64,000 nucleotides of DNA from Ostreococcus lucimarinus. Taxonomy: Eukaryota. How positions within the stretch are numbered: position 1 is the stretch's first letter; every line of letters begins with the position of its first letter. Positions 1 through 47,770 of the stretch are shown piece by piece. The stretch lies in NCBI GenBank assembly GCA_000092065.1, contig CP000593.1; one strand, written 5' to 3'. A program made the translations under genes and the position numbers. Under the pieces are notes generated by a model. It saw nothing but the letters and a program-made list of their open reading frames with translations, had not been told where the DNA came from and did not search any database.

Positions 1-2
1 CG

Positions 3-2702: not shown

Positions 2703-2723
2703 ATCGCGCGCATCGCTCAAACT

Positions 2724-2728
2724 TGTAA
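2724..2728 (+). promoter_or_regulatory. TGTAA poly(A)-signal-like motif downstream of the NFACT gene
   Basis: A TGTAA pentamer lies ~25 nt after the stop at 2702. TGTAA is the green-algal poly(A) signal. Confidence 0.4.
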
Positions 2729-3085
2729 CATTCGCCCCCTCGTCCCGAGGACCCATAAAGTCATAAAGCGTCCATCGCGTCGTCGCGCGCACCGTCGCGT
2801 CTCGCCGCGCCCTTCGCCGCGCGCCCCGCGGGCTTCGCGCGTCGCGCGCGACGCCGACGCCGACGCCTCGCCTCCGACCGCGCGCGCGTCGACCGCGTCG
2901 ACCGCGGCGACCGCGCGTTTCGTCGCGCGGTCGCGTGACGTCACGCGCGAACCGTCGACGTCGACGATTCGTGTCGCGCGACCGACCGCTCGTATGCGTA
3001 AACAGTGACGCGCGAAAATGACAAAATTCGACGTCACCGTCGACGGCGCGCCGCATCGCGTCACTCTCGCACACGCACGCACGAC

Positions 3086-3742: not shown

Positions 3743-3870
3743 TCGAACGATATCGGACAAAGATAAACAAACAACATTTTTTCAAGCAAGGATGGGCAGC
3801 GCTAACGATGTGCGCTCCGCCGCGCCAATTTTCACGACGATGATCGAAGACTTCTTACTTAGTCAGTTAG

Positions 3871-3875
3871 TGTAA
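3871..3875 (+). promoter_or_regulatory. TGTAA poly(A)-signal-like motif downstream of the ELIP gene
   Basis: TGTAA lies in the AT-richer 3' flank ~130 nt after the stop. Confidence 0.35.
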
Positions 3876-3963
3876 CAACACGAAAACATTTGCGCATCAA
3901 TCATTAAAACAATTGCGTCTAACTATGGCTTCGCGAAAGCCCGCGTCCGCCACGTCGAACGCT

Positions 3964-4608
3964 TCACGCGAACTCGTACGCGCGGCGCGCGAGTCGGGCG
4001 ATTTCCGCGTCGTCCGCGCCGCGAGCCACCGCCGCGTACATCGCATCCTCGCGTTCAGACCACACCATTTTCTTTGCAGAGATGTGAATCGGCGGTAAAA
4101 TCACTTTTTCGTCCGTCACGGCTAAGATGTCCTCCACGGACCAAAATTTTTGATCTAAATATTCGTCGGCGCACATCGTCTTGCGCGCGATTTCCTCCTC
4201 CGTCAGCGTCGCCGCGAGGACCACGTTAATATCGCACGTCCCGTTCCCCGCCGGCTCCTGCACTCGAAATTCCCAATTCATCGTGCTCGTGGTCACGAAT
4301 CGAAACCGCTCCGTGTCGATCTCGATCCCGATGTCTCGCTTCGCGTGCCGTCTCGCCGTCTCCTCCACCGTCTCCCCCGTGCGCATCCGTCCACCGATGT
4401 ACCACCACGTCCCTTTCGCCGGTTCGTGCTTGCGCAGCCCGAGCAAAACCTCTCCCTTTTCGTTCGTCAGCAAGCAATCGACGCAGCCCTTCACCAGCGC
4501 GTCCAAAGCGCGTCCGTACTCGTCGTCCGGCAGGAACAGCCCGCTCGGTTTGTACGTCCCAGTCTCGAAGTGGTGGTGTCGCGTCGGCGGTCGCGTCGGC
4601 GCCGGCAT
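3964..4608 (-). CDS. Nudix hydrolase
   Basis: The Nudix box GGRMRTGETVEETARRHAKRDIGIE fits GX5EX7REUXEEXGU. The ORF starts with ATG. Confidence 0.8.
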   Translation of the reverse strand: MPAPTRPPTRHHHFETGTYKPSGLFLPDDEYGRALDALVKGCVDCLLTNEKGEVLLGLRKHEPAKGTWWYIGGRMRTGETVEETARRHAKRDIGIEIDTERFRFVTTSTMNWEFRVQEPAGNGTCDINVVLAATLTEEEIARKTMCADEYLDQKFWSVEDILAVTDEKVILPPIHISAKKMVWSEREDAMYAAVARGADDAEIARLARRAYEFA

Positions 4609-4817
4609 CGTCTCGACGATCGCCCGCGTCTATCGTCGCTCGTCCGCGCGCGCGCGACCGGTCGAAGCGCGTCGGCGCGTCGCGACGTGCGCGTCGCGCC
4701 TCGGAGTCGCGCCGAAAAGTGTCCCGAGCGAAGTGGATAAAGTCGTCACTCCGCCGCGACGTCGCGTCGCGCGCGCGATCGCGCCCGACCGTCGTCGACG
4801 TCGTCCAACGAAGCGCC

Positions 4818-5810
4818 ATGGGCATTCGCGCCGCGTGCGCGGTGGACATGCGCGGTAAGATCGCCGTGGTCACCGGCGCGAACACCGGGATCGGGTTGCA
4901 GACGGCCAGGTTGCTCGCGGACGCCGGCGCGCGCGTCGTCATGGCGTGTCGCTCGATCGACAGAGCGAGGGCGGCGCTCGAGTACGCGTCAAACGGGGGC
5001 GCGAACGACGTGGCGGTGATGGCGCTCGATCTGAGCGACGCCGCGAGCGTCAGGGCGTTCGCGGAAAAGTTTGGGAAGGAGTATGAAAAATTGGACGTCT
5101 TGGTGAATAACGCGGGATTGAACGGGGCGAGCGGATACAGTGGACCGAAGACGACGAAACAAGGGTACGACATATGCATGGGGGTGAATTATCTCGGACA
5201 CTTCATGCTCACGTCGTTGTTGTTGCCGCAGTTGATGAAGAGCGACGGCGCGAGGGTGGTGGCGTTGAGTTCGGTGACGACGTGGTTCGGGTCAAACAAG
5301 TATCAGTACTACTACAAGGGTGCGAGTAAGACGAAGGGGAACTACGGGTCGAGCAAGTTGGCGTGTTTGGCGATGACGGTGGAGCTGCAGCGACGATTGG
5401 ATGCGGCGTATCCGGATAACAAGATCGTCTGCGCCGCCGCAGATCCGGGCTTCGTGGCGAGCAACATTTGGAGAGATTACAACCCGGTTTTGCGAAAGAT
5501 CATGAGCATCTTGGCCTTGACGCCCGCGCAAGGAGCGATGACGAGCGTGAACGCGGCGTCGCTGCCGTCCATAACAAAGGCGACGCTTTACATGCCGTTC
5601 AAGATTAAAATGTCCAAGCTGTTCAAGATGCACAAGAGCGCGACGTACATGTTCGGCATGCCTCTCTTATCCAAAGCGTTCGCCGGTTTCGGCGCCGATG
5701 CCATGGCGCCGCGCGCGAAAAACGCCGAGTCTAACGCGAAGCTTTGGGATTTGAGCATCGAGTTTTGCAAGGAGAACGGCGTCAAGAGCTGCGAGGCGTA
5801 CAATTTGTAA
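4818..5810 (+). CDS. Short-chain dehydrogenase/reductase (retinol-dehydrogenase/WWOX-like SDR)
   Basis: KIAVVTGANTGIGLQTARLLADAGARVVMACR is a TGxxxGxG Rossmann motif. NNAG is present, and YGSSKLA provides the catalytic YxxxK. The ORF opens at 4719 and the first ATG is at 4818. Confidence 0.8.
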   Translation: MGIRAACAVDMRGKIAVVTGANTGIGLQTARLLADAGARVVMACRSIDRARAALEYASNGGANDVAVMALDLSDAASVRAFAEKFGKEYEKLDVLVNNAGLNGASGYSGPKTTKQGYDICMGVNYLGHFMLTSLLLPQLMKSDGARVVALSSVTTWFGSNKYQYYYKGASKTKGNYGSSKLACLAMTVELQRRLDAAYPDNKIVCAAADPGFVASNIWRDYNPVLRKIMSILALTPAQGAMTSVNAASLPSITKATLYMPFKIKMSKLFKMHKSATYMFGMPLLSKAFAGFGADAMAPRAKNAESNAKLWDLSIEFCKENGVKSCEAYNL

Positions 5811-5858
5811 TGGCTGATTATCTTCGCCGCGTCTCCTACAATTTGTTGTCGATTTTAA

Positions 5859-7007
5859 TTACACCACGCTCCACGGAATTTCCTCACCCGCGTAAAATGG
5901 CACCACCGTAGTGTCACCAAACTTGTACTCATCCGGCACTTTCCAAGCCTTCTTCTCCAACGTCACCGTCTCGGTGTTACGCGGGACGCGGTAAAAGTCG
6001 GCTCCGTTGTGCGACGCAAACGCCTCGAGCTTGTCGAGCGCGTCGACGGATTCGAAAGCCATGGCGTAGAGTGGCAACGCGGCATGCGCAGAGAAGATAC
6101 CCGCGCACCCGCACGCGGCCTCCTTTGCGCCTTTGGGGTGCGGCGCGCTGTCGGTGCCGAGGAAAAACTTGCCGCTCCCGCTCGTCGCCGCCGCGAGCAC
6201 GGCTTCGCGATGCTCCTCACGCTTTAAGATGGGCAAGCAATAGAAATGTGGTCTTAAACCACCCTTGAAAAGGGCGTTACGATTGAACAGCACGTGTTGC
6301 GGCGTCACTGACGCTGCGACGTTCGGCCCCGCCGCGGCGACAAACTCGGCGGCGTCGCGCGTCGTGATGTGTTCCATCACCACCCTCAAATCCGGAGATC
6401 TATCCAACAGCGGCATCAAAACGTCCTGAATGAATCTCGCCTCTCGATCGAACACGTCCACGCTCGCGTGCGTCACTTCTCCGTGCACTTGCAACGTCAG
6501 CCCCAGTTCCGCCATGCGTTTCGTCGCCTTCGCCACGTTCGCCACATCCGTCACCCCAAATTCACTGTTCGTCGTCGCCCCTGCCGGGTACAGCTTATAC
6601 CCTCGCACGAATCCACACGCGTGCGCTTCCTCGACTTGCTCTACCGTGGTGTTATCCGTGAGATACAGCGTCATGTGCGGTTCGAATCCGTCGCTCGCCG
6701 GCGCCGCCTTCGCGATGAGTTCCCGGTACTTTTCAGCCTCGCTCGCCGTGCGCACGGGCGGCGTCAGGTTCGGCATCACCAGCGCGCGCTTGAACGTCTT
6801 CGACGTGAACGGGACGACGTCGGCGAGCTTTGAGGCGTCGCGGACGTGCAGGTGCCAGTCGTCCGGTCGAGCGATGGTCAGCGAGGACGCCCGCGCGACG
6901 GCGACGCGCGCGCGCGGCGAGGCGCGCGCGCGACGACCCGGAAGCACCGTCGCTTCGAGGGAGAGTCGCGACGACGCGAGGGCGCGTGGAGAGAGGAGTC
7001 GCGGCAT
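5859..7007 (-). CDS. Dihydroorotase (type II, E. coli PyrC-like) with N-terminal targeting extension
   Basis: ...RPDDWHLHVRD...LVMPNLTPPV...HGEVTH...FLGTDSAPHPKGAKE... aligns throughout with homodimeric-type DHOase. The ATG at 7007 starts MPRLLSPRALASSRLS..., which looks like a transit peptide, and the ORF continues upstream to 7127. Confidence 0.85.
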   Translation of the reverse strand: MPRLLSPRALASSRLSLEATVLPGRRARASPRARVAVARASSLTIARPDDWHLHVRDASKLADVVPFTSKTFKRALVMPNLTPPVRTASEAEKYRELIAKAAPASDGFEPHMTLYLTDNTTVEQVEEAHACGFVRGYKLYPAGATTNSEFGVTDVANVAKATKRMAELGLTLQVHGEVTHASVDVFDREARFIQDVLMPLLDRSPDLRVVMEHITTRDAAEFVAAAGPNVAASVTPQHVLFNRNALFKGGLRPHFYCLPILKREEHREAVLAAATSGSGKFFLGTDSAPHPKGAKEAACGCAGIFSAHAALPLYAMAFESVDALDKLEAFASHNGADFYRVPRNTETVTLEKKAWKVPDEYKFGDTTVVPFYAGEEIPWSVV

Positions 7008-7166
7008 GGCGGGCGGGCTCGAAGTGACGCGCGAGGGCGGCGGCGGCGCCGAGAGACGCTCGTCTCGATTCGAGCGCGCGCGTCGCGTCGAATCGCGTCG
7101 CGCTGCGCTGTTTAGTTTTACACGCACCCACCGTAGCTAGTGGTGGTTGTCATCTCGCGCGCGGCG

Positions 7167-8102
7167 TCACTTGCGCAGGGCGCAACAACCGCCGCACACG
7201 CTATTGAACATTCGCACAAGCGGACTGAGCTCGGCGCCGTCGCCGCCCCGACCGCCTTTGCCTTCGCCCATGAACTGCGAACTCGATCGACTGAGCGAGT
7301 TCACGCCTCTCGCGGCTAAATCGATGACGACCTGACCGGTCTTCGTGTTCCCGACCACGGGCATGTCGTCCTTGTACTGCTCGAAATCCATCTCGGCGCC
7401 GTTTTCAGTCAACCCGGCTTCGAGCTCCAAGCTCGCGATGCTCTCGTGCAATCGCGACTTGCTCGTCGTTAAACTATCGCTCACCGCGTTTATCCGCCCA
7501 CTCACGCTCCCGAGCTCGCTCTTTTTATCGTTCCTCGCCGTCGCACCCCCAGCCACGCGTTCGCTCGGCAGCGAAAAATCAACCGAAAACTCGCTCGCGA
7601 GCTCATCCGCGTCCGCCGCGCTCCCATCGTCGTCCACCGTGCTCCCGTACATCATCGAGTACCCGACCAACGAATTTTCATCGTTCATCGATCGTCCATC
7701 GCCGCTATCTCCGCTCTTCACGCTCCATTTATCCCCTCCTCGTTCCCGTTCTCGTTCCCGTTCGCCGCGCGTCGTCCCGCTCGTCCCGTTCGCCCCTCGC
7801 GGCGCCTGTCCCGTCCCCGTTCGTTTCTCCGCGAACGACTCCAGCTGCCGCACCAGCGCCGTGAGTTCGTTATCTCCGCCCTCCTCGTCCTCCTCGCCGT
7901 CGTACGGCGAGACGAGCGTCGATCGCGGTTTCGATGCGTCGCGCGCGTCCGCGTCTCTGAATTCCCTCAGCGCGCGCTCCGTGAGCTCCACCGCCTGCAC
8001 CGTGCGCGCGCGCGTGTCCGACAGGCGATGCGAGACGTCGTCCGCGCTCGCGCGCGCGCGCGCGAGGTCCACCGACGCGTCCGCGCGAGGGCGCGGCGGC
8101 AT
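7167..8102 (-). CDS. Hypothetical protein (acidic, Ser/Gly-rich, ending in Cys cluster ...VCGGCCALRK)
   Basis: The ORF is 311 aa and its distal two-thirds has a non-repetitive, protein-like composition. The overlapping plus-strand ORF 7345..8370 is S/L/P/R-rich and looks antisense. I recognise no domain. The 5' third contains an (RE)n microsatellite, so the true start is uncertain. Confidence 0.4.
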   Translation of the reverse strand: MPPRPRADASVDLARARASADDVSHRLSDTRARTVQAVELTERALREFRDADARDASKPRSTLVSPYDGEEDEEGGDNELTALVRQLESFAEKRTGTGQAPRGANGTSGTTRGERERERERGGDKWSVKSGDSGDGRSMNDENSLVGYSMMYGSTVDDDGSAADADELASEFSVDFSLPSERVAGGATARNDKKSELGSVSGRINAVSDSLTTSKSRLHESIASLELEAGLTENGAEMDFEQYKDDMPVVGNTKTGQVVIDLAARGVNSLSRSSSQFMGEGKGGRGGDGAELSPLVRMFNSVCGGCCALRK

Positions 8103-8128
8103 TCGCGTCGAGAATACGATCGCGCGCG

Positions 8129-9088
8129 ATGTGGCGCGTCACAATCGCGCGACGCGCGCGCGACGCGAGTTCGCGGCGCTCGGGCGAACGGGACGCGATC
8201 GCGACGATGCGCGTCGCCGTCGCGCGCGCGGACGCGACGCGCGCGCGCGCGCGCGCGGCGGCGTCGCCGCGAAGGACGACGTCGACGGGGGTCGGTTCGA
8301 GGTTCGAGCGGGCGCGCGCGACGACGACGCGCGCGATCGACGACGCGCGCGCGCGAGGAAAGGGTGGTGACGTCGACGCGGAGGCGCGCGCGGACGAGGC
8401 GCGCGCGCGCGCGAGGGCGCGGCTGCGGGAGGCGTGCGCGGGGACGTATCGCGGGGCGCTGGCGACGCGCGACGACGCGGCGGAGATCATGGCGGCGGCG
8501 GGCGCGCTCGAGCGGCTGACGACGAGCGAGACGATCGAGTGGGATGCGCTGGATGGGAAGTGGCGGTTGGCGTACACGAACGCGGCGGACGTGCTGGGGC
8601 TGTTGATGGCGTCGCAGAGGTTGGGGGTGCCCGAGGTGGGGGATATTTTTCAGAGCTTCGGGTGCGCGAACGGGACGAATACGGGGATCACGAACGAGAT
8701 ACGCCTGAGCGTGCCGTTTTTGTTGAGCGAGGCGAAGGTTGGCGCGCCGGGAGGCGTCGGATTGCGCGTGCAGGCGAGTTTTAAGGATGTCGGGCGGCGG
8801 CGCATCGCGTTGACGTTTCAAGAGGCGCAGGTGAGCGAGATTAGTATTTCGCCGCTCGCCGAGACGTTGTTGGCGCCGGCGATTTTGCCTCGGTCGTCGC
8901 TGAATCATCAAGTGCTGATGTTTATCAAAGAGCTCGAGCTGAAGTTTCCGCTTCGGGGCGCTCTGACGTCCATGGGCGGCGGAGAAGCTGGCGCCGCCGT
9001 GGGCACGTATCATCTCACGTTTTGCGACGAGGACATGTTGATCGGACGCGCCGCCGCGGGCGGAATATACATTTTCACGCGCGCTTAA
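8129..9088 (+). CDS. Plastid lipid-associated protein / fibrillin family (PAP_fibrillin)
   Basis: ...LERLTTSETIEWDALDGKWRLAYTNA...LTFCDEDMLIGRAAAGGIYIFTRA matches the fibrillin fold. Fibrillins typically end ...YLDEDLRISRG...FVL. The N-terminus is transit-peptide-like. Confidence 0.7.
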   Translation: MWRVTIARRARDASSRRSGERDAIATMRVAVARADATRARARAAASPRRTTSTGVGSRFERARATTTRAIDDARARGKGGDVDAEARADEARARARARLREACAGTYRGALATRDDAAEIMAAAGALERLTTSETIEWDALDGKWRLAYTNAADVLGLLMASQRLGVPEVGDIFQSFGCANGTNTGITNEIRLSVPFLLSEAKVGAPGGVGLRVQASFKDVGRRRIALTFQEAQVSEISISPLAETLLAPAILPRSSLNHQVLMFIKELELKFPLRGALTSMGGGEAGAAVGTYHLTFCDEDMLIGRAAAGGIYIFTRA

Positions 9089-9182
9089 TTAGCAATTCTT
9101 TCCTTGTAGATTCACACACGCTGCTACTACGTACGTGCGTACGCACCACCACTAAATTCTATAAGTTTCTGACTCGCGTCGA

Positions 9183-10633
9183 TCATCGCTTGCGCATGTT
9201 CACGCCCGCTCTGAGAACCTCATCCGTGCAGAGTAACTGCGTGGCGATGATGGGCGCAGAGTGCAGAATTTGCTGTTTGACGAGAAAGTTGTCGTAGATA
9301 CCACTCATGGTGGGGTCGAAGGGCTCGCCGATGCTGATATCGAAACCGACGACGTTGCCTCTGTCGTGCTCCTCTTGCATGTCGATGATGGCGTCTTGCG
9401 GATCGTAACCGCTGTTCTCCGCGAGTGTCTTCGGGACCACGAGCATGGCTTCCGCAAACGCCTCGACGCCGCGTTTCGCGCGACCTTCGACCATCTTGGT
9501 GACGTTCTCCTTCAAGTGCTTGTTCAAGGCCATCTCAAACGCACCCGCGCCCGGAACCACGGCCTTGTCGGTCAACACATTCTTCACCGCCCGCAAGCCA
9601 TCTCGCACCGCATCCTTGAGCTGTGCGATGGTGTGATCGTTCGAGCCTTTTAAAAGTACCGTGCACGACGTCGGGTTGACGACTTTTTCCACAAAAGTGT
9701 ACTTTTCCTCGCCCAAGACGTACTCGTACACTTCGCCGGCGTGGCCCAAAATTTCCGGCGAGAGTTCCTCAACAGAGTTGATGCATTGACCACCACATGC
9801 GAGGACGAGACGCTCCATGTTTCGGCGCTTGGCGCGACGAAGTCCCATAATGCCTTCCTTACAGAGCATGTCCAGAGAGATTGGGTCGATCCCCTTTTGT
9901 GTGATGACGACGAAACCCTTGTCGTTGCCGTCGCACACCTGCTTCTTGAGCGCGATCACCTTGCGCACGGTTTCATCGGTGTACGCGCGCTCGGCGGCGA
10001 CCATCTTCTCGCGCTGTTCCGCATCGGTGTACATGAACGTCGAGTTCACCTCCGATCGTTCGTATTCCAGGCTGATGTTACACGTCAACACGAACGCGTC
10101 CTCCACGTATCTCTTCATATCCGGATGTCTCGCCCCGTGGTCGAGGACCAAACCCTGAATCAATTTGGTTTCGTCATCCGTCTGATGCTTCATGGTCATG
10201 ATCTCCACCATGTGCAAATCGATCGACTCTTCCGGTTTGGCGATGCACAACACAGCGTCGACGACGATCGTCGTCAACTTATCAGCCAACTCTTCCCGCA
10301 ACTTTGTTCGCAACGCCGTGCGCGCCACGCACAACAACATTTCTCGATCCGGCGCTTCCACACCCGGCGCCGCGCGCTTGAACGTTTCCAAAAACTTCAG
10401 CGACTCGCGTTTCGCCACATCGAATCCCTCCACGATCACTCTCGGATGCAAACCCTCATTCAAATACCGCTCCGCTTGCTTCAACAACTCTCCGATGACG
10501 AGCACCGTCGTCGTCGTCCCGTCCCCGGTGATATCATCCTGCGCCACCGCCGTCCTCGCGATCATGATCGCCGTCGGGTTTTGAATCTGCATCTCTCTCA
10601 GCAGCACGTTCCCATCCTTCGTGAGCTTCAAAC
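9183..10633 (-). CDS. CCT6: T-complex protein 1 subunit zeta (CCT6), exon 2
   Basis: ...[21 protein letters not shown]...[17 protein letters not shown]...[15 protein letters not shown]...VPGAGAFE... aligns end-to-end with CCT-zeta. It joins exon 1 through a CAG acceptor with the motif tgcgtag|GTTTGAAG. Confidence 0.9.
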
Positions 10634-10796
10634 CTACGCACATCGATTTCAACATCGCCGTCAGTCGTTCGGTCAACAGAGTCAACGCCGCGCCGCGTTC
10701 GCGCGAAATCCAACAGATCACCGTCACCGCGCATCTCTCACGCGCCGCCGTGACGCGCGAAACCGCGATGTATCGACGAAACGATCGTACACGCAC
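10634..10796 (-). other. CCT6: Intron of CCT6 (163 nt, phase 1)
   Basis: The donor is GGAG|GTGCGTGT. An ACTGAC branch-like motif lies ~30 nt before the acceptor tgcgtAG. Splicing joins ...KMLVDGAGG to LKLTKDG..., exactly as in CCT-zeta orthologues. The summed exon lengths, 154 + 1451 = 1605 nt, are divisible by 3. Confidence 0.85.
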
Positions 10797-10950
10797 CTCC
10801 AGCACCGTCGACGAGCATCTTGATCGTCCCTTTCGGGCCTAAATTCGTCTTCATCACGTCTTGGAGACCCTTGGCGGCGTTGATGTTCATGAACAGCGCG
10901 GCATCGGCGTTCATGAGCTCGGCGTTGGGGTTGATGGACTTGAGCGACAT
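10797..10950 (-). CDS. CCT6: T-complex protein 1 subunit zeta (CCT6), exon 1
   Basis: [52 protein letters not shown] is the conserved CCT-zeta N-terminus. The reading frame breaks after this point unless the intron is removed. Confidence 0.9.
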
Positions 10951-11208
10951 CGCGACGGCGTGGGATCACGTTCACGCGCGCGTGTGCGCGTCCAAAGGGA
11001 GATCGATGCGCGCGTGCGTCGTGGACGCGTCGCGATCTGATGCCGACCAAAGTCATCCATCCAAAGTCGCCATTCGCGAGTCCAGCGGCGGTTCGCGATT
11101 TTGACCGTGGCCCCGACGCCGGCGCGGTCGGTCGATTCGGCGCGCGGTGGCTAAAATTAAAAGGGCTACTTTTAGGTTTGGATAGTGCGTGGAACGAGGC
11201 GCGAGCGG

Positions 11209-12465
11209 TCACTTGATGTCGCAAAAATCGACGTCGCCGGCTTCGCCAGAGTACGATACGTGGAGCTCGAGCTCGGGATTCGCGATGTGGAGCATCATTT
11301 TGACCACGGCGCACTCGCTGGTCATGACCGGGCCAGATTTGGCCCCTACGGCTAACGCGCCGAGACCGGCGGCGTAGAGCTCCGGTCGTAATTCGCCGCT
11401 TTGACACTGCGTCGATAGGTAGATTTGCAATCCGCGCGACGCTTGGCTGGTGAGCCAAGGGACGAGGCTCTGCGGGAAGTTTCCCACGCCGAACGCTTCC
11501 AAGATGATGCCTCGCACGCCTCGACCGTACAAATCGCCGTACGCCTTTTCGATGTCTAAGCCAGGAATCACCGGGACGCGTATGACGTTCGAATTCAACT
11601 CAAATTGCGGCGCGTACTCTGGCGCCGGCCGTAACAAACGCGCGTGGTTCCAATCGACCCCCACTCCTAATCTCGCGAGCGCTGGATACGAAGGTGAACT
11701 AAACGCCGCGTACACCGTCGCGCTCGTCTTTGACGCGCGATTCCCGCGTAAAAGCTTACCGCCGAAACAAATCGCCACCTCCGCGAAATCCACGGTACCT
11801 CCGCAGCTTCGACTCGCGCAACAGCACGTCAGGGCGTCAATCAAATTTTGGCGCGCGTCCGATCGCGCGAACGACAGAGGCAACTGCGAGCCCGTCAACA
11901 CGATCGGCTTTCCGAACCCAACCAGCATCAACGACAGCGCGCTCGCCGCGTACGCCATCGTATCCGTTCCGTGCGCCACGACGAACGCCGAGTACTCCTC
12001 CCTCCTCTCGTGCAGCGCCCGCGCGAGCGTCACCCAATCCTTTCCGTCCATCTCGCTCGAGTCTTTATTCATCAACACCTCCACGTCCAGCCGCGCGAAA
12101 TCTCGCAGCTCGGGTATCACCTCCTGCACGTCCAACAGATATTTCGACGCCCCCAGCGGTCTGTACTTGCCACCCGCGCGCGGGACGACGTCCGCCTCTC
12201 GCAGCTCGAACGACTCCACCCCCATCCCGAGCGTGCCGCCGCAGTGGAGCAGCATCACGCGCGGTCGCTCGTCGTCGCCCGTCGTCGCGCTCGCGGAGGC
12301 ATCGCGCGCGCGCGCGAGCGATTTCACCGGCGACGCGCGCGAGTCGGGCACCGACGCGACGAACGCGTCGTAGCTCTCGCTTCGCGGGATCGCGCCGGGC
12401 GCGAACGGCATGGACACGCGCGACGCGTCGCGTCGCTCGCTCGCGACGTCGGGCGCGCGCGACAT
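11209..12465 (-). CDS. L-asparaginase (type I, AnsA/lysophospholipase-N-like)
   Basis: RVMLLHCGGTLGM...AFVVAHGTDTMAYAASALSLML...GKPIVLTGSQLPL...GVRGIILEAFGVGN matches the asparaginase threonine-motif region and fold. Confidence 0.8.
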   Translation of the reverse strand: MSRAPDVASERRDASRVSMPFAPGAIPRSESYDAFVASVPDSRASPVKSLARARDASASATTGDDERPRVMLLHCGGTLGMGVESFELREADVVPRAGGKYRPLGASKYLLDVQEVIPELRDFARLDVEVLMNKDSSEMDGKDWVTLARALHERREEYSAFVVAHGTDTMAYAASALSLMLVGFGKPIVLTGSQLPLSFARSDARQNLIDALTCCCASRSCGGTVDFAEVAICFGGKLLRGNRASKTSATVYAAFSSPSYPALARLGVGVDWNHARLLRPAPEYAPQFELNSNVIRVPVIPGLDIEKAYGDLYGRGVRGIILEAFGVGNFPQSLVPWLTSQASRGLQIYLSTQCQSGELRPELYAAGLGALAVGAKSGPVMTSECAVVKMMLHIANPELELHVSYSGEAGDVDFCDIK

Positions 12466-12550
12466 CGCGTCGCGAAGTGCGCGAGGCGTCGGTCGGCGAA
12501 GCCAATCGTCGTTTCGAGGCGCCCTCGCGCGAGGACGCGTTGCAAACGGC

Positions 12551-12580
12551 TACGCTACGCTACGCTACGCTACGCTACGC
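12551..12580. repeat. (CTACG)n pentanucleotide microsatellite in the intergenic/5' region
   Basis: ctacgctacgctacgctacgctacg lies between the asparaginase start and the carrier gene's 3' end. Confidence 0.6.
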
Positions 12581-13567
12581 GACGGGATCGTCGTTTAATA
12601 CGCCTAAAACGCCCTCGTACGCGGCGAACGTGATGGCCGAACTCGGTAACACGCGAACGACGTTGGGGGCGAAGCCCTTGTAGAAGCCGCGAACGCCCTC
12701 GCGAGCGAAGGTGCGCGAGACGGCTTCGCCGAAGCGCGCGTACGTCGGGGCGTCCGCGGGTCTACCGACGTCCGAGCGCTGTTGAATGCGCGCGCGCACG
12801 ACTTGAATTGGATAAGTCGCGGTCACGGCGATGAATTTCGACGCCAAGCCCAGGGCGCCAGCCTCGACCGGGGCGACGTCCGCCGCGCCCCCTCGCGCGC
12901 GTCTCGCTCTGCCGCTCGCCGCGATTTCCTTCAACCACTCGTACGCCGTCAACTGTATCGAACCGTGCGAGACGAGCCATATCGACGGCACGAGTCCCTT
13001 GTATAACCCTCTCAACCCTTCCTTTCGCGCGATCGTCGCCAACGCGTCGACGAATCCCGCGTATCGCTTTTCGCCGCTCTTCGCCGCTTCGCTCGCCGCG
13101 TCCCCTAATCCTCCTCCTCTCTGCAACTGCAACCGCGTCTTCACCACCCAAATCGGGTTCGTCAGCACCGTCGTCACCACCCCCGCCTCCGTGGCCGCCA
13201 TCATGTTCGCGCCCGCCGGCAGCGCCCCGTTTCGCTCTCGTCCGAGCGCGTCCGCGTACCGCGCCCGCGCGCCGTCGTACCACGCGAAATACGCCCCCCA
13301 GCTCACCGCGCTCCCGACGATCGCCGGCGCGGCGCCCGCGTAGATCCCGCGCGCGCCTTCCTCGGCGACGATCCGTCGCGCGCCTCGCCACGCGCCCGCG
13401 TACCGCGCGCGTCGCGCGTCCGGGTCGTCCTGCACCTGCAGCCGCGTCTTCACGACGTCGAGCGGGTGCAGCGCGAGCGTGCTCGACGCGCCGCCCGCGA
13501 CGCCGGCGACGAACGCGCGCCAATCGCTCGCGCGCGCGTCGCGCGCGTCGGCGCGCGCGCGCGCCAT
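12575..13567 (-). CDS. Mitochondrial carrier family protein (folate/FAD/NAD+ transporter-like, SLC25A32/Flx1-like)
   Basis: Three carrier repeats are present, including HPLDVVKTRLQVQ. The ATG at 13567 starts MARARADARDARASDWRAFVAGVAGG..., and the ORF opens upstream at 13624 with GTG. Confidence 0.8.
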   Translation of the reverse strand: MARARADARDARASDWRAFVAGVAGGASSTLALHPLDVVKTRLQVQDDPDARRARYAGAWRGARRIVAEEGARGIYAGAAPAIVGSAVSWGAYFAWYDGARARYADALGRERNGALPAGANMMAATEAGVVTTVLTNPIWVVKTRLQLQRGGGLGDAASEAAKSGEKRYAGFVDALATIARKEGLRGLYKGLVPSIWLVSHGSIQLTAYEWLKEIAASGRARRARGGAADVAPVEAGALGLASKFIAVTATYPIQVVRARIQQRSDVGRPADAPTYARFGEAVSRTFAREGVRGFYKGFAPNVVRVLPSSAITFAAYEGVLGVLNDDPVA

Positions 13568-14181
13568 GCTGCGGCGTCCGCCGCGCGGGCCGTCGAGGCT
13601 GGGCGGCGTTCTGCTGATACTCACACTGTTTACCCATACGAAGACACATACTCTTGAGTCATGAACCGTCGACGAAACGCACGCGTCGACGCATCCTCGC
13701 GAAGACCCCAGGACGGCGGCGGCGCCATTCTTCGACGGTCAAAGGTGCGCCCGCGCGCGGCGAACGACGCGCGCGCGACGGCGATCGACGGACGCGGCGG
13801 TGGGAAATATTCGCGCGCGTCGCGGCGCGCGCGCGAGGGCGCGCGACGACGCGAGGGCGAGGCGATGCGGGCGCCGCGCGATCGATCGCGGACGACGATC
13901 GATCGCGGACGGCGCGCGGACGACGATCGGACGCGGTGACGCCGCGATGCGACGCGCGAGGCGTCGGTCGCGGATGGAAACGATCGGGAGGAATACGCGC
14001 GCGATGGATCGGGCGGCGCGGGACGCGCGCGAGGGTCGCGAGCGAGGGGGGGGGGCGAGGTTGACGATCGCGATCCGATGGCGGCGCGATGGCGGGAGGT
14101 TTGGACGCGGGACGAGGCGAGACGAGAGGAAGGGGGACTGACGATGCGCGCGTGGCTCGAAACAGTTGAAATAAACGCACA

Positions 14182-41463: not shown

Positions 41464-41577
41464 TTGTGCGTATGCATAAACAGTCTTCCTTAACTCAGCT
41501 GGTAGAGTGTCAGACTGTTAGGAAAAAGTCTCCGTCGAATATGACGGCTGCTCCGATAGAGATCTGGAAGCCGCGGG
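41464..41577 (+). tRNA. tRNA-Asn(GUU)-like sequence with a 41-nt insertion (intron-like) between positions 37 and 38; possibly a pseudo-tRNA or SINE head
   Basis: The cloverleaf can be drawn by hand. Acceptor TCTTCCT pairs with AGGAAGA and the discriminator is G. D-arm ACTC-AGCTGGTA-GAGT has G18G19 and an A-box-like TAACTCAGCTGG. The anticodon stem is TCAGA/TCTGG and the loop CTGTTA|A carries anticodon GTT. The T-arm GCGGG-ATCGAAA-CCCGC is B-box-like. T5 lies ~25 nt downstream. Unusual features are U1-A72 and A54. Confidence 0.4.
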
Positions 41578-41700
41578 ATCGAAACCCGCAGGAAGAGATG
41601 TGTCGACATCAAACCTTACTTTTTCCCATACCCGATTGTCCGTGATGGAAAAGCGACACGACAACACTGTGACTTTCGTCGTTTCGGGGTGACGGATAGT
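41464..41700 (+). mobile_element. tRNA-derived SINE-like repeat, copy 1 (full length with tRNA-like head)
   Basis: A ~222-nt body from gctggtagag to tatcgct is near-identical to 47434..47655. It ends in an A-rich tract (actttaaaaaatttatcgct) and is followed by T9 and a GC inverted repeat. Confidence 0.6.
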
Positions 41701-41840
41701 ACTTTAAAAAATTTATCGCTATGAGTAATAAAAATAAACTTTTTTTTTGAGTTGGGGCACCCCAACATGATAAAACCGCACATCGACGTTGATGTACCGC
41801 ATGTAAGATTTCTCCAGAACCAATCGTGTGAGTGAAGTGG

Positions 41841-42338
41841 TCAAGCCAAGCCGCGTAACTCATCTACCGTAAATTGATACTTGTCGAGACTGCGCTTCGA
41901 AGGCAGCGTGCCGCGCGCTCGGGCATTCTTGAGGCACGTCTTGCGCAGTATTCCTTTTGCGTGCTGCTTGTAATAATTGAGTTGTCTGTAGTTACCATCG
42001 CCGCCGTCCCGCTTCGGCGTATATTGAGCTCTGCTGTAGGCTGGACTCTCGTCCACGTTCTCGCGGCACGCGTGTTTCTGGCTGCGTCCAGCAGCTCGGG
42101 AGTTGAATAAGCCGTCACGCTTCTCTCTCATGTAGGCACCTTTACGTTGATGGAGCTCTCCAGCTGGAATGTCCTTTTCGAGAACTCTCACGTCCGCGTC
42201 GCCAAACGTGAAGATTGGATGTCGTGCGTATTTATGCGAGGCAAGGCGCGCTCTGAGCGAACCCGTCGTCGATCCGATGTACGTTTTGTTACATTTCGCA
42301 TTATCGCTAAACATTTCGTACACGCATCCCGACGGCAT
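41841..42338 (-). CDS. Free-standing GIY-YIG endonuclease-domain protein (homing-endonuclease/viral-like), located in a low-GC island
   Basis: MPSGCVYEMFSDNAKCNKTYIGSTTGSLRARLASHKY matches GIY-(x10)-YIG-ST..L..R...H. A downstream ...LFNS... supplies the conserved Asn region. The C-terminal 70 aa are basic. The ORF GC (~52%) is well below its neighbours (~68%). There is no RING, so it is not SLX1. Confidence 0.6.
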   Translation of the reverse strand: MPSGCVYEMFSDNAKCNKTYIGSTTGSLRARLASHKYARHPIFTFGDADVRVLEKDIPAGELHQRKGAYMREKRDGLFNSRAAGRSQKHACRENVDESPAYSRAQYTPKRDGGDGNYRQLNYYKQHAKGILRKTCLKNARARGTLPSKRSLDKYQFTVDELRGLA

Positions 42339-42521
42339 TTGTCCTGGTTACCTATCTATCCCTAAGAAAATATTGTTGCCAAAAGTGCCTCCTCCTGCGG
42401 TTTGCAGTCACATCCGAGAGACCATAGGTACGCGTATCGCTGCGTGGGCTGCAAGGTCCGGAATGTAGATACCGAACCGCCTGATTTCACACCTGGACGT
42501 TCGTGATCCGTCGAGACCTGA

Positions 42522-42710
42522 CGAAATGACGAACTTGTTTTGTCGTCCACAAATTCGTCAACCCGTCGTTCGGTGACACTTTGTGTGTACCAATGATGAA
42601 AATGACGAAATGTTAAAATATTTTAATGTTTATTTTTATTTTAGATCTATGACAAGCAACAGTGTGGACCTTTATGAAAACAGTTCGTCATTCGTCATTT
42701 CGTCAGGATC
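42522..42710. repeat. Inverted repeat pair (ctgacgaaatgacgaac ... gttcgtcat(tcgtcat)ttcgtcag) flanking an extremely AT-rich ~150-bp spacer, with a third direct copy (gaaaatgacgaaatg) inside
   Basis: The ~17-bp arms are reverse complements of each other, and the spacer is >75% A+T. Confidence 0.5.
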
Positions 42711-42772
42711 CAAACCATGGTCTTTTTGGTGTCTCGTTGAGTCTTCATATTGCAAATGTACGAATTACAAAA

Positions 42773-43069
42773 TTAGTATGAGCACCAGACGACCGCCGGC
42801 GCGAGCTCCGTCTCCCCTGTGTACCCATTGTCCTTCAGCCACTCGAAGCACCCGTCGCGGTGAATTTCCCAATAGACGCCCTTCTCGTCTCTACCTTGCC
42901 TCAGGTGGTCCTCTTCCATTGGGACCCTGTGGCCCTTTTCCTTCTTGAAGAAGTCCTTGAGCTTATTGCCGACCTTCGTCGCGCTATCTTGACCGCGCGC
43001 AGCCGCTGGCAACCACGTCTGGTATTCGATGAAGATGTCACTGTGTGCATAAAAATGACTTGCGCTCAC
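42773..43069 (-). CDS. Small ORF (98 aa) of unknown function downstream of ZNG1; it may be UTR rather than a gene
   Basis: The ORF opens with GTG and has no ATG until codon 51. Its composition is not GC-skewed (...GVYWEIHRDGCFEWLKDNGYTGE...). A TGTAA on this strand follows directly after its stop. Confidence 0.25.
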   Translation of the reverse strand: MSASHFYAHSDIFIEYQTWLPAAARGQDSATKVGNKLKDFFKKEKGHRVPMEEDHLRQGRDEKGVYWEIHRDGCFEWLKDNGYTGETELAPAVVWCSY

Positions 43070-43169: not shown

Positions 43170-44810
43170 TCAGACTAAGCCGTCGTTTTGAGAGGGCGCC
43201 GACTTTGCCTTTGGTTTTGCCTTCGACTTTGAAGTGGGTTGCGGCCTGATCTCCTCTTCGATCTCCTCGTCGTCGACCAAATCTTCGTCGATTTCTTCGT
43301 CGTCTTCGTCATCGACTTCGTCGTCTTCGTCTTCGTCGTCTTCGTCTAGAAAGACATCACCCATGACTGCTCTCCAGCCATCAGAACCCATTTCGAATTC
43401 TTCGTCGGTCAAGAGGCAAGAGTCCAACGTTGATTGAATTTCATCGTATTTAAGATCCTTGCCAATGAACACCAGTTCTTGTCGGCGATCACCATAAGGC
43501 CCCTCCCAGTCTTTACGAAGTTCTTGCTTTATCCCCTGTGAGCCGACCCAAGCATTTTTATTCAGCGCGGTCCATCGGCTTGATCCTTCGAGAGAGTAAA
43601 TATTACCAGCCTGACTGAAAACAATTATCAAGTCGTGGGCATCACTGAGCCACGTTACACCCTTCGAACGTAGCAGCACACCAATTTCACCTTCCCTTTT
43701 ACGGCGCTTGAGTTTCATCGCTTCTTGTCGCGCTCGAATATCTTTCACTGCACTCCAGTCTACACTTGGTGTCTCTTCATCTTTTTCTTCATCACGGTCA
43801 TCGGCCTCGAGGGAGCTGAAGAAGCGCTCGACAAATGAGCCTAAAAACCGTTTGGGATGAAAAGGTCTTCTGGCTCGGTAAATGAAAGACGTAATACCGA
43901 ACCGACTATCGTGACGTGTTTGGGAAGAACTTGGTGCAAGCGTGACCTCGCTTAAGGCTGTTTCTCTCATGCGAGCTCGCTTACAGCATGGAGACTCACC
44001 TTTGTCCCTAGCGCCGGCGCAGCATGACTTCACAGATGTTGCTTCTATCTCTTGTTCCCATGTTATGAAACCAGCAAAGTCATTCTCTTTGTAAAGTTTT
44101 GTATTGACGATTCGCGTAACGTCGATCGCGCCGTTCACAGCTTCAAGAATATCAGCACGTGAATTGAGAAGTTGTATCTGCGCTTTAATCTCGGCGAGTT
44201 GTTCGTCATCGACAGTGTCGACCTTGTTCAATACGACGACATTCGCGTACTCTATCTGTTCAGCCAACAATTGAGAGTAAGACTGCCTGTTCACAGCTGA
44301 CGCCCTGAAAGAATCAATCATGTCGAGAAAGTCACCTGCAGCGATGACCGTCACGCACGTATCCAGCCGCGCCAGTGTGCTCAAATGTTCATGCTCATCA
44401 ACGTGCGCAGCTTCATGATCGTGATCGTCCTCACAATTTGCGAAGAGTTTCGCAATTTCCGCCGGTTCCGACACTCCTGATGCCTCTACGATCATGTAGT
44501 CAAAATTGCCACTCTTGGCCATGTCCCCGATTTGTTTTACAAAGTCTCCGCTCAACGAACAGCACACGCATCCGTTCTGCATGGCAACCACCTCGTCGCT
44601 CTGCAGCAAAGCGGAATCATCGATTAATTTTTTGTCGATGTTCAACTCCGCGACGTCGTTCACGACGACGGCACACCGAAACTTTCCGTTCGCGTCTCGC
44701 TTAGCTTCGAGCACGCGTTTCAGAGTTGTCGTCTTCCCAGCGCCGAGGAACCCGCACAGCGTTGTCACCGGCAATCGATTATGATTGGCGATTGCGGCGG
44801 GTGTGGACAT
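43170..44810 (-). CDS. ZNG1: COG0523/CobW-family GTPase (ZNG1-like zinc metallochaperone) with acidic C-terminal tail
   Basis: PVTTLCGFLGAGKTTTLKRVL is the P-loop. The CxCC metal-binding motif is present in ...MQNGCVCCSLSGD.... A CobW_C domain and a D/E-rich tail follow. The ATG is at 44810. Confidence 0.85.
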   Translation of the reverse strand: MSTPAAIANHNRLPVTTLCGFLGAGKTTTLKRVLEAKRDANGKFRCAVVVNDVAELNIDKKLIDDSALLQSDEVVAMQNGCVCCSLSGDFVKQIGDMAKSGNFDYMIVEASGVSEPAEIAKLFANCEDDHDHEAAHVDEHEHLSTLARLDTCVTVIAAGDFLDMIDSFRASAVNRQSYSQLLAEQIEYANVVVLNKVDTVDDEQLAEIKAQIQLLNSRADILEAVNGAIDVTRIVNTKLYKENDFAGFITWEQEIEATSVKSCCAGARDKGESPCCKRARMRETALSEVTLAPSSSQTRHDSRFGITSFIYRARRPFHPKRFLGSFVERFFSSLEADDRDEEKDEETPSVDWSAVKDIRARQEAMKLKRRKREGEIGVLLRSKGVTWLSDAHDLIIVFSQAGNIYSLEGSSRWTALNKNAWVGSQGIKQELRKDWEGPYGDRRQELVFIGKDLKYDEIQSTLDSCLLTDEEFEMGSDGWRAVMGDVFLDEDDEDEDDEVDDEDDEEIDEDLVDDEEIEEEIRPQPTSKSKAKPKAKSAPSQNDGLV

Positions 44811-44867
44811 GATGTACGGCGATCGACGTCTCCGCGCGCGAACGAGCCGAAGAGGCGTCGCGAAGTG

Positions 44868-45142
44868 CGGCGATGCGCGCGCGTCGTGCACGTGTCGACG
44901 ATTCGCGTCGTGCACGTGTCGAGGATCGTCGTACGCGACGCCCCGCGAAGCCCATCACGGATCGCGTCGCGACGCGCGTCGTAAACATGTCGACACGCAT
45001 GTCGACATATTTACCCACGCGCGTGTACGCATTGAACCCCGTGATGCATCTATATACGAAAAACGTCTCGACGCACATGTCGACATATTTCGACATATCC
45101 AAGTACCACCGAGATGTGTCGACACTGCGGCGGATGTCGACA
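44868..45142. promoter_or_regulatory. Cluster of GTCGAC-centred palindromes (5x [A]TGTCGACA[T], plus a 2x 23-nt tandem cgtcgtgcacgtgtcga(c/g)g) in the ZNG1/ZIP bidirectional promoter
   Basis: ATGTCGACA occurs at ~44987, 45000, 45078, 45117 (as TGTGTCGACA) and 45135. Two copies extend to CATGTCGACATATTT. The tandem repeat with CACGTGTCGAC lies at ~44875-44925. Confidence 0.55.
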
Positions 45143-45368
45143 TTTTGTCGTTCGCGAGTCGTGACTTATAAACGACCGCCCTCCATCGCGCCGGTTCGGT
45201 TCGTATGCCGCTTTAGTTTGTGCGCAGCCGCACTTACCGACGCCGGCGAAGACGACGACGACGACGGAAACGATGACGAACGAAAACACGAAGAACACGA
45301 AGACGACGATGCCGCCGCGCGAACGCGCACGCGGTGCGAGGACGGTCGAGCGACGACGAGGGCGAACG

Positions 45369-46802
45369 ATGCGCTGCGCGAGCGCGCTCGGTGGTGGCAT
45401 CGCGATCGTCGCGAGCGCGCTCGCGCAGCGCGGCGCGCACGCGTCCGGCGCGCACGCATTCGAATGGGCTGGAATCTTTGAGACGCCAGAGAATGAATAC
45501 GTGTGGCAGGCGCAAAAGGTGGCCGATAAGTACGCCGCCGATACCATGAAAATGGTCATCTACGACGAAATCGCCGCCGGACACGACGAGCTCGAAGCCC
45601 GCGAGGATAGCGGTGATACCGCAATCGGGGGAGCTTGTACGACGGCTAAGATACGAGATAGTGTTTTGACACCTGATAGTGGGTGTGTCAACCTTGAATT
45701 TGACAACACCTGGCACACGACGCCGTTTAAGATTAATACGACTGGCATCGACGCGATCTCAATCTTCGCTGAGCACGTTCCCACCGAGTTCGAGCGCGAC
45801 GCGCACTATCTCAAGGACCTCCACGGAGATGACGTGGTGCCAAAAGCTTCACTTCCCGAAGCATCCACCGTGAGCGAATCGAAATCAAAACCGTGGGCCA
45901 ACGCCATTGGGGCGGCAATTATCGTCAATATCGTCACACTTTCTGGTGTGGTCTTTCTCATCCCGAGTATCGCTAAGAAGCAGAAAGCGTACCCTGAAAC
46001 TGTGAGTTGCACAATTAACTCGTTTGCCGCCGGCGCACTTCTTTCGGCTGCGTTTTATCTGATGTTCTACGAAGCCACGCATTTAATCAAACCTGCTGGC
46101 TCGGATGAGGCAGAGCAGACCGCATGGTGGGCTTCCGCTTCTATCTTCGGCTTTCTCATGGCCTACTTCATCGACTTTGGTATCTCTGTCGTGTTCCCAA
46201 CTCTTGGAAATACAGCGAAGACAACCGATGCGGAACTTGCAGTCAAAGGCGCTCAAGATGACTGTGATACTTGTACTTGTAACTCACACAAGTATCGCGT
46301 TCGAAGTGGTATCATTCTTGGAGATTTCATGCACAACCTAGTGGATGGTATTTTCATTGGCTTCGGCTTTCTGAACTGCGACAGTACCATGGGATGGTCG
46401 ATCACCGCCGCGACCGTCTATCACGAAATCGCTCAAGAGCTTGCTGACTACTTGGTGCTCGTAGACCCCTTCCAGGGCGATCTCGCGCCGTTGCCGACGC
46501 TGACTTTAAACTTCGTTTCCGGCTTGAGTGTCATTCTTGGCGTCCTCATTAGTGTTGGATCGGGAAATAACAACGACTTCTGGCATGGACTGCTGCTCGC
46601 CTTCGGTGCTGGAGTCTATCTGCAAATCGCCGCCGCAGAGTGCATGCCCCGAGTATCAGTGAGCGCCACTTCACCTCGTCTTCGCGCGACGAGCATTCTC
46701 ACCTTCATCGTCGGCGTTGTTGCCATCAGTCTCGTGCTCCTCAACCACAAGCATTGCACAGGCGGTGGCGGTGGCGGAGACTCACACGCACACGCGCACT
46801 AA
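45369..46802 (+). CDS. ZIP (Zrt/Irt-like) family metal transporter
   Basis: MRCASALGGGIAIVASALA is a signal peptide. Multiple TM segments follow. HNLVDGIFIGFGF and YHEIAQELADYLVL are variants of the ZIP TM-IV and TM-V motifs HNFxDGLAIG and HEIPHELGDF. The C-terminus has a His-rich stretch HKHCTGGGGGGDSHAHAH. Confidence 0.75.
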   Translation: MRCASALGGGIAIVASALAQRGAHASGAHAFEWAGIFETPENEYVWQAQKVADKYAADTMKMVIYDEIAAGHDELEAREDSGDTAIGGACTTAKIRDSVLTPDSGCVNLEFDNTWHTTPFKINTTGIDAISIFAEHVPTEFERDAHYLKDLHGDDVVPKASLPEASTVSESKSKPWANAIGAAIIVNIVTLSGVVFLIPSIAKKQKAYPETVSCTINSFAAGALLSAAFYLMFYEATHLIKPAGSDEAEQTAWWASASIFGFLMAYFIDFGISVVFPTLGNTAKTTDAELAVKGAQDDCDTCTCNSHKYRVRSGIILGDFMHNLVDGIFIGFGFLNCDSTMGWSITAATVYHEIAQELADYLVLVDPFQGDLAPLPTLTLNFVSGLSVILGVLISVGSGNNNDFWHGLLLAFGAGVYLQIAAAECMPRVSVSATSPRLRATSILTFIVGVVAISLVLLNHKHCTGGGGGGDSHAHAH

Positions 46803-47025: not shown

Positions 47026-47137
47026 TTAATCCAGATACGCGCGCACGCCTTTCTGAAGCATGGTCGGTACCTCGGCTTTCAACTTGTCTGGGAGCGTCGC
47101 GTCGGCGTCCTTGACCTCGCGCAGAAAATCGAGCACC
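47026..47137 (-). CDS. Small hypothetical protein, exon 2
   Basis: It encodes ...VLDFLREVKDADATLPDKLKAEVPTMLQKGVRAYLD*. This frame is reached only by removing a 53-nt intron. Confidence 0.35.
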
Positions 47138-47190
47138 CTATTGGTGGAGAACTGTCAGGGAAGGATCCAAGGTGGCGGCATTTGATACAC
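47138..47190 (-). other. Putative 53-nt intron (GTGTAT...CTGAC...AATAG) in the small hypothetical gene
   Basis: The donor is CT|GTGTATC and the acceptor is ccaccaatAG|G. CTGAC lies ~14 nt upstream of the acceptor. The length of 53 nt restores a long ORF across the two flanking frames. Confidence 0.35.
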
Positions 47191-47369
47191 AGGTTGCGCC
47201 AGGCTTTGTTAGACAGCAACGGACTCGATTTTACATCATCCGCCAGTATTGCAATTCCTACACGCTTCCCATTTAGCCAGTGCTTGGGCTCCTCGAATTG
47301 GTCTGTTTCGGGATTATACAGACTGAGCATCTCTGGGGTCAAATACTCGTCCCACACGGAGGCGTTCAT
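47191..47369 (-). CDS. Small hypothetical protein, exon 1 (from first ATG)
   Basis: It encodes MNASVWDEYLTPEMLSLYNPETDQFEEPKHWLNGKRVGIAILADDVKSSPLLSNKAWRN. Its composition is moderate in GC and coding-like. The ORF opens upstream at a TTG. An acceptor-like tttacAG lies just 3' of repeat copy 2. Confidence 0.35.
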
Positions 47370-47433
47370 CAGGTGCCCATCGAGTTCCTTGTATTGCTTC
47401 AATCTCGTCGCGGTATCTCTGTAAACAATTTTG

Positions 47434-47655
47434 CTGGTAGAGTGTCAGACTGTTAGGAAAAAGTCTCCGTCGAATATGACGGCTGCTCCGATAGAGATCT
47501 GGAAGCCGCGGGATCGAAACCCGCAGGAAGAGATGTGTCGACATCACACCTTACTTTTTCCCACACCCGATTGTCCGTGATGGAAAAGCGACACGACAAC
47601 ACTGTGACTTTCGTCGTTTCGGGGTGACGGATAGTACTTTAAAAAATTTATCGCT
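47434..47655 (+). mobile_element. tRNA-derived SINE-like repeat, copy 2 (5'-truncated, begins in the D-loop)
   Basis: It is ~98% identical to 41478..41700. It lacks the first 14 nt of the tRNA-like head. It is followed by a 12-bp palindrome, CCCCCATGGGGG. Confidence 0.6.
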
Positions 47656-47770
47656 GTGAGATTCACCCCCATGGGGGGAGCTCGGCTTCCCTGATTTTTT
47701 TGTCACTTTTTCACGACGCCGCGAACCCCTCGTCCCGAACTCCGAGACGCGACGCGAGACATCCATCCCA

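Follow-up and report, generated by a model that had tools for sequence, protein, structure and literature searches.

The GIY-YIG gene under study, which lies in a 64,000-nucleotide stretch of Ostreococcus lucimarinus DNA (the window), is probably an accessory gene of a polinton-like virus (PLV)-type element in Ostreococcus that has decayed here within a polymorphic insertion at a tRNA-Asn gene, and its product probably does not cut DNA. The open reading frame (ORF) is found where the original prediction had placed it and displays the motifs quoted there (Table 1). As we reconstruct it, the GIY-YIG gene of intact relatives follows a PrimPol/superfamily-3 helicase (S3H) gene, with at least one contig adding a double-jelly-roll capsid gene and a P-loop ATPase gene, and the window would hold a decayed piece of such an element, in which the 3'-terminal 90 helicase codons are followed by the spacer and an intact GIY-YIG gene. 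That piece makes up one end of a 5,935-bp block, a fragment of the ATPase the other, with CobW/COG0523 and ZIP genes midway. If it acts at all, the GIY-YIG protein would bind DNA as a partner of the replication module of the element and would not home.

Table 1. Features of the insertion block and its tRNA-Asn target, in window coordinates
Feature	Position	Strand	Details
tRNA-Asn(GUU) gene, 42-nt canonical intron	41484..41597	+	Rfam RF00005, 49 bits, E 1.2e-8
Direct repeat 1, 228 bp	41498..41725	.	tRNA-Asn without its first 14 nucleotides, plus 128 nt downstream
3' flank of GIY-YIG gene	41730..41840	minus	GC hairpin at ~41751..41766 and A/T run
GIY-YIG ORF	41841..42338	minus	165 aa, ATG start
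Spacer, helicase remnant to GIY-YIG gene	42339..42775	.	inverted repeat and AT-rich core
Helicase 3' remnant, aa 644-733 of 733-aa PrimPol/DUF5906 (superfamily-3)	42776..43045	minus	tblastn
CobW/COG0523-type GTPase gene, cellular-type cargo	43170..44915	minus	Pfam cobW, CobW_C; GC3 0.58
ZIP-family metal transporter gene, cellular-type cargo	45273..46802	+	Pfam Zip; GC3 0.62
P-loop ATPase fragment, aa 113-212 of 308	47118..47423	minus	64% identity to the 308-aa ORF of L017
Direct repeat 2, 228 bp	47433..47660	.	tRNA-Asn copy without nucleotides 1-14, plus 128 nt

Fold, active-site residues and architecture of the protein

By its fold and by five of the six signature residues the protein is a member of the GIY-YIG superfamily, the catalytic glutamate being the one that fails. 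The Pfam profile PF01541 scored 16.7 bits on the window protein against a gathering threshold of 22.6 and covered aa 4-37, so this check fell short for the protein alone, but 15 of 19 relatives matched the profile at E up to 1 (top 6.5e-7) and the assignment holds. A wide profile (A3) built from 30 family sequences found the catalytic domain of I-TevI in the PDB (1mk0 at 3.3e-6 and 1ln0 at 8.5e-6); a narrow family profile (A1) had given no GIY-YIG match there. The matches in a viral structure library were GIY-YIG proteins of giant viruses, phages and Mavirus, the 165-aa Mavirus protein among them. The three-stranded sheet with flanking helices (a beta-beta-alpha-beta-alpha core) is present, and the fold is closest to that of I-TevI. 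The predicted GIY-YIG fold is thus borne out by the Pfam matches of the relatives, the family-profile match in the PDB and the viral structure matches; the viral affinity that had been proposed for the ORF is supported as well.

Residues Y7, Y20, R31, H35 and N79 are retained in the protein and were invariant or nearly so across 208 aligned relatives. The column of the catalytic metal-binding glutamate (E75 of I-TevI), which was anchored both by E75 of 1ln0 and by the alanine of the E75A mutant 1mk0, is occupied by lysine (K66). This column held Glu in 157 of 198 aligned relatives, Lys in 33 and another residue in eight, and all 33 relatives with Lys belong to the window protein's own clade (at least 85%; hereafter the K66 clade). 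The same glutamate has been mutated in PDB entries of Eco29kI (E142Q, an inactive variant) and T4 EndoII (E118A). With Lys in place of the metal-binding Glu, the protein has most likely lost the ability to cleave DNA through the canonical one-metal mechanism. Against this loss of activity it can be said that K66 copies are numerous and seem to have multiplied recently, which one would hardly expect of a dead gene were cleavage necessary for its spread.

The C-terminal tail, described in the original prediction as basic, is so (pI 10.1), is conserved in the pattern YRQL..Y...N..ILR..C..NA...P..S..KY and is predicted to be helical over aa 118-162, the stretch of aa 80-113 being modelled at low confidence. 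Pfam recognised no NUMOD or I-TevI-type DNA-binding modules in the ORF, and a PHROGs scan of it returned no match. When the whole library was searched with a profile, representatives of 1,147 clusters matched with E values of 1e-3 or lower, most of them stand-alone proteins of 130-250 aa. The stand-alone architecture first noticed is upheld. That the ORF might be an exon of a longer spliced gene was rejected, the relatives all being 160-180 aa long with conserved start and stop. The protein was correctly held apart from SLX1, as Pfam found no RING/PHD-type finger and the helical tail has no Cys/His pattern, and also from Penelope-like elements, no reverse transcriptase being encoded in the ORF or its neighbouring genes. 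The O. tauri GIY-YIG nuclease ostta16g00515 is induced by iron limitation (PMC4855317); no link between it and the window family was found.

The helicase-GIY unit and its viral relatives

The gene belongs to a recurrent unit. A 733-aa PrimPol/DUF5906 (D5-like S3H) helicase gene is followed directly by the GIY-YIG gene in L009-L014, reef-metagenome contigs of 89 kb to 1.24 Mb, while in L008 and the distant L016 a single ORF separates the two genes; full-length helicase genes matched Pfam DUF5906 and Prim-Pol. The helicase remnant of the window is 93-96% identical to the L008 and L009 helicases by tblastn, and what had been listed as a 98-aa ORF (42773..43069) represents the final 90 helicase codons, truncated at the 5' side at 43045. 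From the helicase 3' end through the spacer and the GIY-YIG gene, window positions 41730..43044 are 94% identical to L009 10605..9304, this identity starting only 4 nt off the direct repeat, and the 3' flank of the GIY-YIG gene (41730..41840) forms the end of the shared unit. The full unit measures ~3.4 kb, its right edge lying just beyond the GIY-YIG terminator hairpin and its left edge (L009 7231) being common to contigs whose left flanks are of four unrelated kinds. Of the 601 members of the helicase cluster many come from contigs of 2.5-4.5 kb, as would be expected of a repeat.

The spacer between helicase and GIY-YIG gene contains a perfect 17-nt inverted repeat (42517-42533, CCTGACGAAATGACGAA; 42691-42707, TTCGTCATTTCGTCAGG), and the AT-rich palindromic core between its arms carries GACGAAATG iterons. 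About 185 nt of this spacer occur on both sides of the L008 helicase gene (326-510 and 3814-3998). Speculatively, the spacer is a candidate promoter, origin or protein binding site.

The viral connection is drawn from L008, a 13.6-kb contig whose helicase is 95% identical at the amino acid level and which has an extra 528-aa ORF. Its GIY-YIG gene is 60% identical to that of the window and keeps the Glu. A 446-aa ORF of the same contig belongs to a large metagenomic family; the model of one member (P0322, 94% identical) has a pLDDT of 88 and matched in Foldseek the double-jelly-roll capsid proteins of PBCV-1 (Vp54, E 3e-17), SGIV, EhV and Sputnik at E 3e-17 to 3e-11. The 446-aa ORF is accordingly predicted from this model to encode a double-jelly-roll major capsid protein. 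The gene set of the L008 element comprises a helicase, a GIY-YIG protein with Glu, the capsid protein and a P-loop ATPase.

IMG/VR contigs of 7-23 kb carry the capsid gene beside homologues of the 323-aa ORF of L008 and of a ~300-aa P-loop protein, and the genes p308 (with Walker A and B motifs), p323 and capsid are syntenic in L040 and L042-L044. This layout would fit the conserved PLV morphogenetic trio as defined in PMC4642659. The 308-aa ORF is a putative packaging ATPase on the strength of its Walker motifs and synteny only; it gave weak Pfam matches and no match in a PDB sequence search. Scans of IMG/VR with the GIY-YIG family and with the helicase returned no relatives, only the capsid profile finding viral contigs, and the contigs so found were without GIY-YIG and helicase homologues. 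L016 represents a third, distant element type with a helicase and a GIY-YIG homologue. The window has no capsid gene, and the likely PLV origin of its copy rests on the homology of fragments.

Stand-alone GIY-YIG genes, which are common in PLVs and virophages, count together with primase-S3H helicases among the genes that these two groups are known to share (Yutin 2013, PMC3671162; Yutin 2015, PMC4642659; PMC12220804), and one to two capsid-gene-bearing insertions have been reported in Ostreococcus genomes (Bellas 2023, PMC10120064), so that the nuclear copy is not as unusual as first supposed. L008 fits the description of these insertions; the main text of PMC10120064 mentions neither GIY-YIG, tRNA nor telomeres. 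The ORF probably derives from, and works in the manner of, the stand-alone GIY-YIG genes carried by PLVs and virophages (for example Mavirus MV06, OLV1/OLV24 and PgVV). There too a small protein is encoded next to a primase-S3H helicase, and the small elements concerned have a double-jelly-roll capsid gene. The window clade differs from these in having no C2H2 Zn-ribbon, a distinct basic helical tail and Lys for Glu, and the window copy in being detached from capsid genes. Unlike the endogenous PLV and virophage insertions of PMC10120064, it is part of a mosaic of fragments with cellular genes and not of a full element.

One end of L008 carries (CCCTAAA)n telomere repeats (1..71), with the PLV-like element (1549..13572) ~1.5 kb away, and the helicase-GIY units of L010, L012, L014 and L017 are also at contig ends. 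Because of these positions and the L008 telomere repeats, a subtelomeric home is suggested for the helicase-GIY units.

A polymorphic insertion at the tRNA-Asn gene

The insertion target is a tRNA-Asn(GUU) gene. The neighbouring feature that had been described as a tRNA-derived repeat is a functional-looking tRNA gene together with the duplicated insertion target. ARAGORN reported no tRNA in the window and thus missed this intron-containing gene, and Rfam at its gathering threshold found no tRNA at four loci because those alleles carry extra insertions. Two direct repeats, 98.7% identical with three mismatches, bound the 5,935-bp block, the first of them consisting of the 3' 100 nt of the complete tRNA-Asn and 128 nt more.

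PLV-derived DNA reaches to within 4 nt of one repeat and 9 nt of the other. The ATPase fragment near the right repeat spans ~100 aa and has Walker B only. The Pfam calls for the two cargo genes (Table 1) were made on identical genes in L004 and L006, and a ZIP paralogue, 78% identical, adjoins the helicase-GIY unit in L010. The GC content of the block is 51.8% against 61.7% and 66.2% in the flanks, and the GC3 of its genes is mostly 0.58-0.62 (0.78 in the helicase remnant, which is 270 nt long) against 0.73-0.82 for the flanks; the GC of the window swings between ~0.50 and 0.75 over a few kb, and 41-47 kb is its longest low-GC run. Genes of zinc-limitation type (ZIP, CobW/COG0523 and GTP cyclohydrolase II) recur beside helicase-GIY units in regions of low GC (0.51-0.54), at 43170..46802 in the window, 14.9-17.2 kb in L009-L014, 5343..6746 in L010 and 1.5-2.9 kb in L017.

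A metagenome scan with the Cupin_8 gene of the right flank recovered conspecific contigs, both filled and empty; an exact look-up of this gene returned contigs that stop at the repeat. For 8-10 kb to either side of the site the empty alleles (L021, L022 and L024) run parallel to the window in gene order, with 98-99% of nucleotides identical; they contain a single tRNA copy and lack all five block genes. The filled alleles (L004, L006, L020, L025 and L036) share the structure of the window. A sister taxon (L033, 92-96% identity) and the more distant relatives L031 and L032 are empty, and the empty state is therefore ancestral. The presence of the block in some O. lucimarinus genomes and its absence from others and from the sister taxa mean that it arrived by insertion, and the filled and empty alleles of one locus display directly the mobile cassette that the original prediction had suspected.

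The tRNA-Asn of the window has only its canonical intron, whereas other alleles and the sister taxon have extra insertions with GTAAGT...CAG ends, in the D-loop (100 nt; L001/L004/L006/L035/L036) and in the T-arm (86-103 nt; L021/L022/L036/L020/L025/L033). The sequences of these insertions are not repeated elsewhere in the window, and the left edge of the 228-bp repeat is at most 2 nt from the D-loop insertion point. The Cupin_8-like/MJ1567-like interval of another lineage (L027, 1420..6890) holds ~5.5 kb of different DNA, which has no Pfam matches, and only a 40-nt tRNA match; the tRNA-Asn site may be a recurrent insertion hotspot. A contig from ERZ922745 (L038, 1..3941) has the order GIY-YIG gene, repeat, ATPase fragment, ZIP and CobW, with a mosaic SNP pattern in the repeat, and possibly represents a circular or tandem cassette junction, or else an assembly chimera that arose in the de Bruijn graph where the repeat length exceeds k.

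The anatomy of the insertion resembles that of the tRNA-targeted islands of bacteria and archaea, in which DNA of foreign composition with cargo genes lies in the 3' part of a tRNA gene, direct repeats take in the 3' end of the tRNA, the tRNA gene is restored on insertion and part of the population has the site empty. The window differs in being from a eukaryotic nuclear genome, in its long repeat (228 bp) starting in the D-loop, and in having no integrase: the block encodes no integrase or recombinase, and a Pfam search for recombinases among ~35 element ORFs gave only a sub-threshold Phage_int_SAM_1 match, in a 286-aa ORF of L016, that the PDB did not support. Cryptophyte PLVs were reported to have no tRNA genes within 1 kb of their integration sites (PMC12220804).

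We infer that recombination through the 228-bp repeat brought the block in and can remove it. Either a circle carrying the 228 bp would integrate by homologous recombination and be excised in Campbell fashion, or a site-specific recombinase would act in trans, and recombination between the repeats could also delete the block. Both ends of the ATPase fragment are cut, so that the block is probably a patchwork put together at another place, perhaps a hypervariable or subtelomeric region of low GC, and not a cleanly integrated virus.

Constraint, alternative readings and significance

The ORF protein is identical to XP_001421138.1 and XP_001422817.1, which represent two loci of O. lucimarinus CCE9901, and XP_001421474.1 of the same strain is 93% identical to it; the UniProt name is already 'GIY-YIG domain-containing protein'. 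At 90% identity it clusters with marine metagenome proteins, 898 members in all, and the identical protein was met on contigs across 77 metagenome-index blocks. An exact look-up of P0035 gave no record, and the protein accessions of the ORF gave no match in a literature search.

Among K66-clade copies at different loci dN/dS was 0.25-0.34; since the copies compared sit at different loci, this value speaks for the source lineage and not for the window copy. The differences within the clade were 13 synonymous and 14 non-synonymous, with ~22% synonymous expected under neutrality (binomial p 0.003). This shows that constraint acted on the K66 source lineage after the change from E to K.

It is conceivable, at perhaps one chance in a few, that the ORF is an inert relic which stays open only since the insertion is recent and is functionless in place. 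The neighbouring element genes are truncated and the catalytic residue is lost, and the filled alleles at the window locus all encode an identical GIY-YIG protein, hence offer no in-situ test of selection. Yet the ORF is intact in hundreds of clade variants in which the adjoining helicase is often broken, and the family-level purifying selection went on after the E-to-K change.

Domestication by the host, in which the virus-derived GIY-YIG protein would serve as a non-catalytic DNA-binding factor, for instance in antiviral defence or metal-gene regulation, is rather unlikely. The dN/dS of ~0.3 despite the lost Glu, the identical protein at no fewer than two reference loci and over so many index blocks, and the recurrence beside ZIP, CobW and RibA-type genes speak for it. 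The gene is nevertheless dispensable, as empty alleles exist. The number of copies varies, and decay is visible in some of them (a truncation to 115 aa in L007, C16S and R85C in L010b), while the linkage to the helicase gene or what is left of it persists, as for a selfish module.

A similarly slender chance attaches to the view that the 5.9-kb block can still move, as a cargo element that circularises, with the nuclease-dead GIY-YIG protein as a DNA-binding or targeting factor. Virus-derived ends would then shuttle the ZIP and COG0523 zinc-limitation module in and out of the tRNA-Asn, L038 being a circle or tandem junction, and this, if true, would amount to adaptive gene-content polymorphism in wild Ostreococcus.

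Least probable, and improbable in itself, is a working free-standing homing endonuclease that cuts empty alleles at or near the tRNA-Asn so that repair copies the cassette in: the I-TevI-like fold, the retained Y7, Y20, R31, H35 and N79, the intact ORF in a family under purifying selection and a presence/absence polymorphism at one precise site favour it, but the E75 equivalent is Lys throughout the clade, there is no intron or intein, the gene also occurs in contexts with no nearby tRNA, and gap repair gives neither 228-bp target duplications nor 5.7 kb of unrelated genes. The comparison with I-TevI-type phage homing endonucleases points the same way, for the window gene has neither an intron context nor NUMOD/DNA-binding modules nor the E75 equivalent, and although empty sites exist, the insertion is a multi-gene block carrying four other gene pieces and bounded by long direct repeats.

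No new mechanism is established by these points; specialists may want to look again at the E-to-K clade, the metal-gene cargo and the tRNA-flanked polymorphism. Read as an accessory gene of a PLV-type element, the seemingly odd presence of a single 'phage-like' nuclease gene in the nucleus of an alga becomes understandable as polinton-like virus debris, and it lies in a eukaryotic insertion with hallmarks of bacterial tRNA-targeted islands. The K66 clade of PLV GIY-YIG genes has lost its catalytic Glu and yet has been under purifying selection, which bears on the function of these ubiquitous, uncharacterised GIY-YIG genes in PLVs and virophages.
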